Shown: positions 30,508-32,622 of the stretch, in pieces | How the letters are laid out: each line of letters begins with the position of its first letter | How positions within the stretch are numbered: position 1 is the first letter of the stretch | Assembly (NCBI GenBank): GCA_044892505.1 | Contig: CM097883.1 | Location: 132,680,001-132,717,061 of the forward strand | From: Schmidtea nova | Taxonomy: Eukaryota | Direction: 5' to 3' | DNA length: 37,061 nt | Notes under the pieces: generated by a model | Databases searched by the model: none | What the model was told of the DNA's origin: nothing | The model's input: the letters and a program-made list of their open reading frames with translations, nothing else | Made by a program: the position numbers and the translations under genes

Positions 30508-31923
30508 TCAATTGTCTCCTGAATTATATTCCTCAAAATTACAATTTTCTTCGACATCGTTTATATTTCCCACAATTTTCTCATCGACAATGCAGTTTTC
30601 TTCAAAATTATATTCATTTACTGCCCGCTCATCTTTTACTACCATTGTCGATTCAATTTCCGTCATTACTTCTTGCACTAATTCGTTTGAAGTAGTATTT
30701 ATTCCATCCTCGCTTGCAATATCAACCGACCCAAATTTGTCAATCATTTCACCAGACACACCACCATTCATCGCGCTATTCTCACTTCGACCTGAATTCA
30801 AATCGCCATCACCAGTTCGAACCTCACCAAGAACTGCTTCCTGAGCTTTAGGTGCAAAACTCTCGATACATTCCTCTTTACACTGTTCTTCTCGATAAGT
30901 CACGATTGACCTGTTTTGATTCTCGGTTTTCTTTTTACTGTCATCCATTTTTATCACAGGAAAATGTCGCAGTCCACATTGTGGACGTGGGTACCTTCTA
31001 TTGTCAATCTTTTCAGAAGCCTTGCAGTGTTTCTGCCCGTACTACCAATTGAAATCCTTTTTCTGACCCAATCCATATAATATCTCATTTGTCGCTCGTA
31101 TTAGTTCGGCTTCCTTTTGCAACCACTCCTTTAACCGTTTTACTGATTCCTCACTTTCATCTTTTGCATGCTCTCTTTTCCATTGAATAAGTAGAGAAGC
31201 AGGTAATTTCTTCAACAGTTGTTGTAAGATACAGCCTCTCTGTATGTTCTCTTCTCTTCCAATTGCCTTAAACCGTACTTCCATGGATTCCAGCAATCCA
31301 ACAAAACTATCCAAATCTTTTATTTCTCCTTCGCAAACCGGCATAAACTTGTCTACAGTTTCTAACATAATCAGGTAACTACGTTCTTCACCTCCGTATC
31401 GCCTTTCCAATTTATCTTTCGCCATTTTGTAGCCTTCGGCGGTATAACCCAGTGGCTCTGTCATTCGCAGAGGTTCACCTAAGAAGTACTGCTTAAGATG
31501 CAGCATTTTTTCTTCGGCTGTTTCATCTGCCTTATCTATTACCGTGTTGAAGGCCGCCTTCCAATTTTCAAACTTGATCACTTTCCCATCGAAAATCGGA
31601 ATCTTAATTTTCTGCAACCGATTTAAACTCTTCTTTTCTCTTGGCTCTTCACCATCTGACGTTTTCGACCCTTCAATTATTACACTTCCTTTCTTAATTT
31701 GCAATATTTTATTTATCTCTTCCTTCTTTAATTCGATTTCACCAATATCTTTCTCAACTAACTCCATTTCCTCGTTTTTGTCTAATCTTTCACATAGTTC
31801 CAACAGTCTTTGCTATTCGTTCAAGGCCTGTTAAAATTCTTTCTCATATGCTTCTAGTGAATCCTTGAGCTCCCCATTTATGTCTGCGAGCAATAAATTA
31901 CGCATTTGACTCACTCTCCATTT
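30508..31923 (-). pseudogene. Bel/Pao LTR-retrotransposon Gag (DUF1759-like)
   Basis: IKIPIFDGKVIKFENWKAAFNTVID; EKMLHLKQYF; GYKMAKDKLERRYG; LLKKLPASLLIQW; degenerate Zn-knuckle (HCK...PQCGLRH); in-frame acidic tail; stops at 31831, 31813, 31042. Confidence 0.85.
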
Positions 31924-31971
31924 TTAAGATCGCTGACGGGTCCATAAACTTTTGAACTCTTCCTCATCATT

Positions 31972-32235
31972 ACCACCTCTTAAACGAAGAACAAGATGAA
32001 GAGTAGATTCTTTTTGAATGTTGTAAACTGACAGGATTCTTCCGTCTTCCAATTGTTTACCCGCAAATATCAATCTCTGTTGATCAGTAGGGATTCCATC
32101 TTTGTCTTGAATCTTTGCTTTTACTTTCTCAATAGTGTCCCTCGATTCAACTTCCAGTGTTATTGTTTTACCTGTTAAAGTTTTAACAAAAATCTGTATT
32201 CCACCTCTCAATCGCAAAACAAAATGCAAAGCTGA
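31972..32235 (-). pseudogene. Polyubiquitin fragment: C-terminal remnant (..[12 protein letters not shown]) plus one full 76-aa ubiquitin
   Basis: [17 protein letters not shown]...[12 protein letters not shown] at 32199-31972; 68/76 identical to canonical ubiquitin by manual comparison; all seven Lys and the terminal GG retained. Confidence 0.97.
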
Positions 32236-32622
32236 CTACGTTTGATTTTCTGTCACTCGCGAACTATAATCTTTTAAACTTTTCCTTTCATCACCACTTG
32301 ATATTGAATAAAAACGCACTAATTCCCCTATTTTATTCATATTTACCCTGTCTTCATGAATACCTAATTTAATATTTTTAGCAACTTGATCATAGAAATT
32401 TTTATAATTACTTTTATCTCCCATTACTCCTACAAAAAGTTCTAAGCCTTTTCCCACTAACTCTTTTCTGATTACTTTCAAAATTTTATTTTGTTGCAAC
32501 ATTTCCCGGCTGATATTCAATAGAAGATCTTCACTGTCATAACCAGTCCACCTACTAACCTCTACACCTTTAAATATCAAGTTATCTTTTTCTATACATG
32601 TTGCCTCGTAAGCAGGTGACAC
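32236..32622 (-). pseudogene. HSP90: Cytosolic Hsp90 middle-domain fragment
   Basis: [65 protein letters not shown], matching Hsp90 [25 protein letters not shown]...[10 protein letters not shown]...SGDEMVSLKDY..RMKENQ. Confidence 0.95.

Follow-up and report, generated by a model that had tools for sequence, protein, structure and literature searches.

Bel/Pao retrotransposons share a DUF1759 Gag, protease, reverse transcriptase (RT), Peptidase_A17, integrase and DUF5641 in a single frame, together with TG..CA long terminal repeats (LTRs), 5-bp duplications, a tRNA primer site and a polypurine tract (PMC3118150). The clade described here, with copies in the genome of Schmidtea nova, differs from known Bel/Pao elements in a frame that opens in the LTR, crosses the primer site and carries cargo and a ubiquitin-like domain; the word "ubiquitin" has 0 occurrences in the main text of the Bel/Pao survey of de la Chaux and Wagner 2011 (PMC3118150). 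LTR-mediated retroposition (Tan et al. 2016, PMC5131818; maize Bs1), as set out there, shares with it the use of partial, spliced mRNAs, joins at microhomology, multi-gene chimeras and further rounds of amplification. In that process the cargo replaces internal ORFs and yields rare, non-autonomous retrocopies, whereas here the cargo lies in the LTR and leader, is present in most copies, full elements too, and is in frame with a working gag.

Ubiquitin as a processing signal is described in cytopathic pestiviruses, whose captured ubiquitin, often with a cellular or polyubiquitin piece in front, is cleaved by the cell's ubiquitin hydrolases, which sets an exact N-terminus within the polyprotein (PMC8310069, PMC13517609). 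The family examined here shares with that signal a ubiquitin fold that ends in Gly-Gly, in frame directly before Gag; the pestivirus insertions are recurrent and recent events in an RNA virus, whereas here the fusion is fixed and ancient, with identity to ubiquitin as low as 18/76. Host ubiquitin- and FUBI-ribosomal protein fusions also have an N-terminal ubiquitin-like domain that host USPs remove after the diGly, the cross-reactive USP16 and USP36 accepting a divergent ubiquitin-like domain, but these are host genes with the domain at the very N-terminus and no leader (PMC10611586). The giant planarian Gypsy element Burro/GYPSM1 is likewise an LTR polyprotein with host-like domains, one of them Ubi2/SUMO-like; it is a Gypsy element of over 30 kb with an N-terminal Gag and fixed accessory domains (PMC6431247), in contrast to the Bel/Pao affiliation, 5-9 kb size, Gag placed after ubiquitin and rotating neutral cargo seen here. 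Each component has a precedent, LTR elements being known to capture mRNA and viruses to use ubiquitin as a processing signal; new, by the literature searched, is that a whole clade combines the two as a fixed trait, with a start inside the LTR and a translated primer site. That literature, PMC11410931 and PMC2836005 included and Repbase and most subscription journals apart, contains no description of ubiquitin-Gag Bel/Pao elements, a layout that Repbase entries may mention.

The starting point was a reading frame on the reverse strand, 32622-30508, in a stretch of 37,061 nucleotides (the "window", to which positions given without a contig refer). The initial annotation had seen in it one Hsp90-ubiquitin-ubiquitin-Gag frame with five point stops and no frameshift, and frame reading and Pfam bear this out: the internal stops lie at 32238-36, 31926-24, 31833-31, 31815-13 and 31044-42, and the order is Hsp90 piece, ubiquitin remnant, whole ubiquitin and Bel/Pao Gag. 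With X at the stops, Pfam matches HSP90 at residues 29-128 (E 1e-33) and ubiquitin at residues 144-215 (E 4e-27), and the DUF1759 Bel/Pao Gag match at residues 344-486 (E 4e-8) is above the cut-off. The order of the chimera stands, but not its extent, since the last codons (about 30530-30508, terminal stop included) belong to an oppositely oriented LTR fragment and not to the element's own end, and the last ~170 codons (31041-30531) are an acidic tail common to Pol-less derivatives, not Gag proper.

Read along the reverse strand, the copy begins with an older leader mosaic (32540-32703); family homology ends at 32703, where matches to many sampled copies stop, the LTR and primer site having been lost. 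The captured piece of host Hsp90 mRNA (32241-32539, residues 374-473) is neutral cargo with 89% DNA identity to the host Hsp90 gene. It is followed by the C-terminal remnant of a second ubiquitin unit (32200-32235), of polyubiquitin mRNA origin and dispensable, and by a whole ubiquitin (31972-32199) that matches host ubiquitin at 68/76 residues, ends LRLRGG and is fused straight to Gag, with a predicted host cut after 31972; the ubiquitin part has 77-80% DNA identity to units of two host polyubiquitin genes. The Gag (31042-31971) groups in the tree with lineage I Gags, has its DUF1759 at 31593-31165, and contains three internal stops besides the stop at 31044-42 and a deletion of the zinc knuckles. 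The acidic tail (30531-31041), which stands in place of pol in non-autonomous derivatives, has DNA matches of 82-90% in most Pol-less sampled copies, is absent from the whole-pol copy and has no Pfam match. At 30531 the copy abuts, in the assembly sequence and so possibly by artefact, a 5' LTR fragment of its own family in the opposite orientation (30114-30530, forward strand), a rearranged remnant that opens with the family's LTR start motif and matches a sister copy's 3' LTR at 92.6% identity over 417 bp. This fragment is the only LTR left in the window, which has no primer-binding site and no pol. Contigs from three runs of unstated type, all of a single study, span the stretch at high total depth, but the copy-specific stops and the inversion cannot be confirmed from them. 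The window element is a dead, decayed and rearranged copy of a large and recently spreading Bel/Pao family. Beside its borders, a very high-copy short repeat lies at 32813-33031, where the element breaks off (and also at 13379-13637 and 21968-22215), a hairpin of 82% at 32653-32723 spans the break, and a DUF4371 (hAT-type transposase) fragment at 29331-29873 on the forward strand adjoins the LTR fragment.

That family was found by searching an AT-rich animal genome that measures 1.25 Gb and has three large chromosomes. The initial annotation had proposed a search for further copies, and a single dead copy would have counted against its reading. The search shows otherwise: a 1-kb query returned 1,677 candidates, with 40/40 of those scored matching, and the primer-binding site has 1,527 matches in the genome and 0 in the control. 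More than 1,000 copies exist, mostly very young. Sister copies are flanked by direct repeats and then carry the primer site, which is complementary to tRNA-Met(CAT) genes, making this tRNA the likely primer. Genome-wide there are 1,034 pattern matches to tRNA-Met(CAT), and a tandem array of these genes starts at G000:C1:510088592 (L163), with a 458-bp period and at least 99 units. Seventy-three loci were sampled from the first 100 listed primer sites, tandem neighbours and the end of the list being left out. An LTR pair ending at the primer site is present in 57 of the 73, at a median identity of 99.65% and at 99% or more in 44. Complete copies have TG..CA ends, 5-bp target duplications and a polypurine tract, measure about 5-9 kb and often sit inside (AAT)n tracts. 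The middles of the LTRs vary from copy to copy, and AATAAA lies no more than about 45 bases from the 3' end in 38 of the 42 LTRs with a recognised start (counted by eye), which suggests that R is long and U5 short.

LTRs and pol, which the initial annotation had wanted sought, were found in sister copies and not in the window copy. An RT match is present in 6/73 sampled loci; one sister copy has a frame of 2,195 codons with Hsp90, ubiquitin, Gag, protease, RT, Peptidase_A17 and DUF5641, and three (L084, L083 and L110) have a single-frame Gag-PR-RT-RNaseH (Peptidase_A17)-IN-DUF5641. Most of the remaining sampled copies finish in the acidic tail after Gag or protease. By its domains and ends the family is a member of Bel/Pao; Peptidase_A17 is present in all of the best 120 of 1,081 pol matches, the tree itself having no named superfamily references among its rows. 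As the repeats differ between copies, Penelope-like pseudo-LTRs and the Burro element were also considered, and both are excluded by the TG..CA ends, the primer site and the Bel/Pao domains. Several unusual derivatives were encountered: head-to-tail element arrays with common LTRs (L067, L093, L107 and G000:C19:34775-58160); a two-ubiquitin Bel/Pao junction in five copies with a 33-kb period (G000:C1:590835000-590968133); and a lineage IV derivative (L067, L077, L066) that keeps the leader, ubiquitin and only the first ~110 Gag residues in an open frame of 1,200 codons, with no Pfam match downstream of the truncated Gag.

The order in intact copies is LTR cargo, translated primer site, internal cargo (Hsp90 or Hsp70), ubiquitin and Gag(-Pol), in a frame that opens within the 5' LTR and passes through the primer site, read as GSRAWF; several in-frame AUGs are preceded by many upstream AUGs in the LTR. 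Ubiquitin stands directly before Gag in 55 of the first 60 loci and, by a stricter alignment of 73 loci, in 64, of which alignment Hsp90 was found in 37 loci and Hsp70 in 20. The layout spans five Gag lineages, whose identity to lineage II is 29-45%. The slot of Hsp90 holds Hsp70 or nothing in other lineages, and the aligned Hsp90 pieces are 52 to 98 codons long; Hsp90 is a recent passenger in the family. Besides Hsp90 and Hsp70, Pfam recognises HECT, CCT, FKBP, TPR, ThiF, AdoMet decarboxylase, enolase, FHA, proteasome, Dcc1, ANAPC2, ABC transporter and oxidoreductase domains among 54 leaders, in which we also take calmodulin-like and UBA1-like N-termini to be visible. Cargo is added upstream, in frame, in whole-pol copies as well, and internal ORFs are not replaced. 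The Dcc1 cargo of one copy (L085) matches the host gene at 97-99% identity but without its 6.5-kb GT..AG intron; the in-frame join lies at host codon 12, and 17 LTR copies now carry this cargo. Together these features indicate a recent capture from spliced mRNA. In the window copy the Hsp90 piece lies within one exon, so that splicing cannot show there. Two host Hsp90 genes (L143 and L144, at G000:C2:39.46 and 39.69 Mb) encode an identical protein in inverted orientation and are either a recent duplication or an assembly duplicate.

The initial annotation placed a Gln-Lys microhomology at the Hsp90/ubiquitin join. The host genes do share Gln-Lys-Glu there, with 8/9 bases alike (one join, with no chance control), but the window itself reads Gln-Thr-stop, and most copies Lys-Thr-Glu. 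In L061, L096, L103 and other Hsp70-type copies the join of Hsp70 to the ubiquitin remnant falls at the Lys-Glu-Ser position that Hsp90 uses in other lineages, which suggests a recombination hotspot. Join microhomology and the intron-less cargo of a sister copy support the annotation's proposal that host mRNA was captured by template switching.

Measured against the host genes, dN/dS is 1.37 for the window Hsp90 piece (4.5 synonymous and 27.5 replacement differences) and 0.04 for the window ubiquitin (35 and 11). The medians are 0.93 over 41 Hsp90 pieces and, for ubiquitin, 0.05, the latter from unsaturated dS only. Because changes in the host lineage inflate dS against the host, copies were also compared with each other: dN/dS is 0.88-1.16 for Hsp90 (38 copies) and 1.04-1.65 for Hsp70 (20 copies), and values about 1 largely refute both as functional parts; for ubiquitin (65 copies) it is 0.47, falling with distance to 0.11, and for lineage I Gag, lineage II Gag and protease it is 0.16-0.19, 0.06-0.23 and 0.15-0.24. 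The first 28 codons of the window frame also evolve neutrally. All 12 leader lengths found in at least two copies are divisible by three, as are 27/40 overall. Among 169 shared replacement changes in Hsp90 and Hsp70 there are 0 stops, with 6-7% expected (binomial 7e-5), although the comparison of shared with private changes, which include five stops, is not significant (Fisher p 0.06). The cargo is thereby shown to be neutral yet kept in frame, and the ubiquitin before Gag, like Gag, to be under purifying selection. Genome-wide, the Gly-Gly before Gag in lineages I and II is present at 1,002/1,025 sites and that of the upstream ubiquitin remnant at 751/1,189, both counts being of copies and not of independent events. 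The two halves of the ubiquitin differ in their nearest relatives, which shows exchange between lineages; L109, whose junction was not located, was left out of the Gag/ubiquitin tree.

Relatives beyond this genome were recovered through pol, a query with ubiquitin being swamped by polyubiquitins and Gag alone giving 4 matches. Within the best 120 of 1,081 pol matches, a ubiquitin domain is present in 7 of the top 11. These relatives are proteins from unrelated assemblies (ENA, JGI and Logan). Their pol is 46-52% identical, and they have the same single-frame Gag-PR-RT-RNaseH (Peptidase_A17)-IN-DUF5641 and cargo of their own (kinesin with Sec24, a TRAF zinc finger, another part of Hsp90); in four of them the translated primer site is seen. 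An RT tree, made by a quick method from 54/126 proteins with three rows labelled by hand, has one clade of 14 rows (SH-aLRT 100) that includes three copies from this genome. Ubiquitin matches occur in 8 outside proteins of this clade and in 0/112 proteins outside it; two members begin inside ubiquitin with the tail kept, and one is without its N-terminus. A metagenome scan (query P0121) gave one distant Bel/Pao, without a leader. The ubiquitin-Gag fusion is ancient and clade-defining, and is not, as first thought, one of three recent joins.

Across 15 domains, identity to host ubiquitin ranges from 18 to 69 of 76 residues. Leu73 and Gly75 are kept in 15/15 and Gly76 in 14/15 (the exception is a decayed copy), as against R74 in 4/15, R72 in 7/15, I44 in 7/15, V70 in 3/15, H68 in 8/15 and K63 in 6/15; within the family's own genome there is good conservation of K48, K11, K27 and the I44 face. 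The tail of the largest lineage reads LRLCGG. In the ubiquitin enzyme USP36, Leu71 and Leu73 sit in hydrophobic pockets, the diGly lies in a narrow channel and is needed in terminal position, and Arg72 and Arg74 are contacted too (PMC10611586). An ordinary ubiquitin-specific enzyme might cut LRLCGG and other tails without Arg72 and Arg74 poorly, and drift at these positions, the main weakness of the cleavage reading, suggests that the enzyme is tolerant. Gly-Gly is followed by N, G, S, M, V or Q, depending on the lineage. Gag starts without Met in lineages I-III and V, for which cleavage would be a simple route to an authentic N-terminus; a Met directly after Gly-Gly in some lineages makes internal initiation possible there. 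We infer host cleavage by ubiquitin hydrolases solely from the conserved Leu73-x-Gly-Gly.

These results support part of the initial interpretation, which was also too narrow. Selection on the frame is backed by the dN/dS values and in-frame leader lengths, and a ubiquitin processing signal before Gag by the Gly-Gly counts and the invariant tail. By contrast, Hsp90 as a selected part fails on its dN/dS, here and over the 38 copies, and on its replacement by Hsp70 or nothing elsewhere; the first LRLRGG, lost in 37% of copies, is not a needed site; the Asn taken for an N-end signal is only one of the residues found at that position; and free ubiquitin as the product that matters is at odds with drift at R72, R74, I44 and V70.

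The best reading of the ubiquitin is as an ancient, host-cleaved linker that would free Gag from disposable cargo. We are fairly confident that the clade's frame runs from captured mRNA through a conserved ubiquitin-like domain to Gag and that host deubiquitinases would cut after its Leu-x-Gly-Gly, freeing Gag(-Pol). In the proposed mechanism, reverse transcriptase, while copying the long R and the leader, would switch at short homologies onto co-packaged mRNAs, as in the published model (PMC5131818), and pieces captured in R would be copied into both LTRs. Ribosomes would start at an AUG within the cargo, so that Gag production and spread would be restricted to captures in which the frame stays open. 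Cutting after Leu-x-Gly-Gly would then fall to a host deubiquitinase, as happens with the ubiquitin of cytopathic pestiviruses (PMC8310069); neither how long the leader is nor what it contains would matter to Gag, and almost any captured gene could be tolerated. As most copies are pol-less and their Gag is selected, they probably package RNA of their own, with Pol supplied by the full elements, which are rarer.

The conservation of the domain could also mean that ubiquitin is chiefly a folding or expression aid for Gag, in the manner of the ubiquitin-ribosomal protein fusions, from which cleavage follows and tolerance of cargo is a by-product, an account that is compatible with the linker reading but in itself unlikely. 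Core fold residues are conserved within the family's own genome, and several lineages keep an old Gag start Met after Gly-Gly, as if ubiquitin had preceded an intact gag; on the other hand, near-host ubiquitin and domains with 18-24/76 identity both work, and a long leader stands before ubiquitin in every member with a visible N-terminus. A fused ubiquitin is able to replace retroviral late domains, and this domain might correspondingly stay attached, or be released and conjugated, and act via ESCRT, the proteasome or trafficking factors, or as a decoy. The well-kept K48, K11, K27 and I44 face within the genome would fit such a role, which we nevertheless hold to be improbable, since I44, V70, H68, R72 and K63 drift across the clade while the cleavage tail is invariant, and an uncut internal domain would need no Gly-Gly.

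The cargo itself might be useful, its chaperone and proteostasis fragments (Hsp90, Hsp70, CCT, FKBP, UBA1, HECT, proteasome) serving as functional accessory domains: these families recur among the 54 leaders, an outside relative has a different Hsp90 piece, and new cargo can spread fast, as the 17 LTR copies of Dcc1 illustrate. The neutral dN/dS largely refutes this for Hsp90 and Hsp70, the pieces are partial and interchangeable (Hsp90 at 52-98 codons), and enolase, kinesin, Sec24 and AdoMetDC were captured as well. Abundance of the mRNAs would be explanation enough, and the idea is very improbable. Slighter still are the prospects of a cut made by the element's own aspartic protease, with ubiquitin as a relic. 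Full elements do encode a protease, but most copies lack it and yet keep the site, and the domain is under purifying selection; retroviral-type proteases, moreover, need neither a ubiquitin fold nor Gly-Gly.

On balance, though with less assurance than for the cleavable linker as such, we favour a broader statement: that a whole animal LTR clade has dispensed with a start codon and 5' end of its own, continually swaps host mRNA pieces into R, translates through its primer site and sheds the product via ubiquitin and deubiquitinases, as a standing exon-shuffling "machine". A cleavable linker would remove the usual cost of capturing host genes and so permit capture at scale. If this is true, the element produces hundreds of translated host-gene mosaics, and its ever-changing, host-like LTR may also serve escape from small-RNA silencing. 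Maturation of its Gag would depend on a host deubiquitinase, a dependence not described for LTR elements in the literature searched. The near-identical young copies can reveal which mRNAs are packaged, where switches occur and the pace at which translated neutral mosaics form, with the upstream remnant and the cargo as built-in neutral controls. The divergent domains amount to a natural mutational scan, in which a cleavable domain, as against a conjugatable ubiquitin, would need Leu73, Gly75 and Gly76.

Elsewhere in the window, a decayed tubulin-like pseudogene with a weak Pfam Tubulin match lies at 28295-29346 on the forward strand, and a separate integrase core fragment, further left, at 24677-25033 on the reverse strand. 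Positions 36-9248 hold pieces of a protein-primed DNA polymerase B with an endonuclease VII motif, and an inverted repeat of 1,497 bp and 99% identity joins 991-2487 to 7752-9248; this region is presumably a Polinton-like remnant with an internal inversion.
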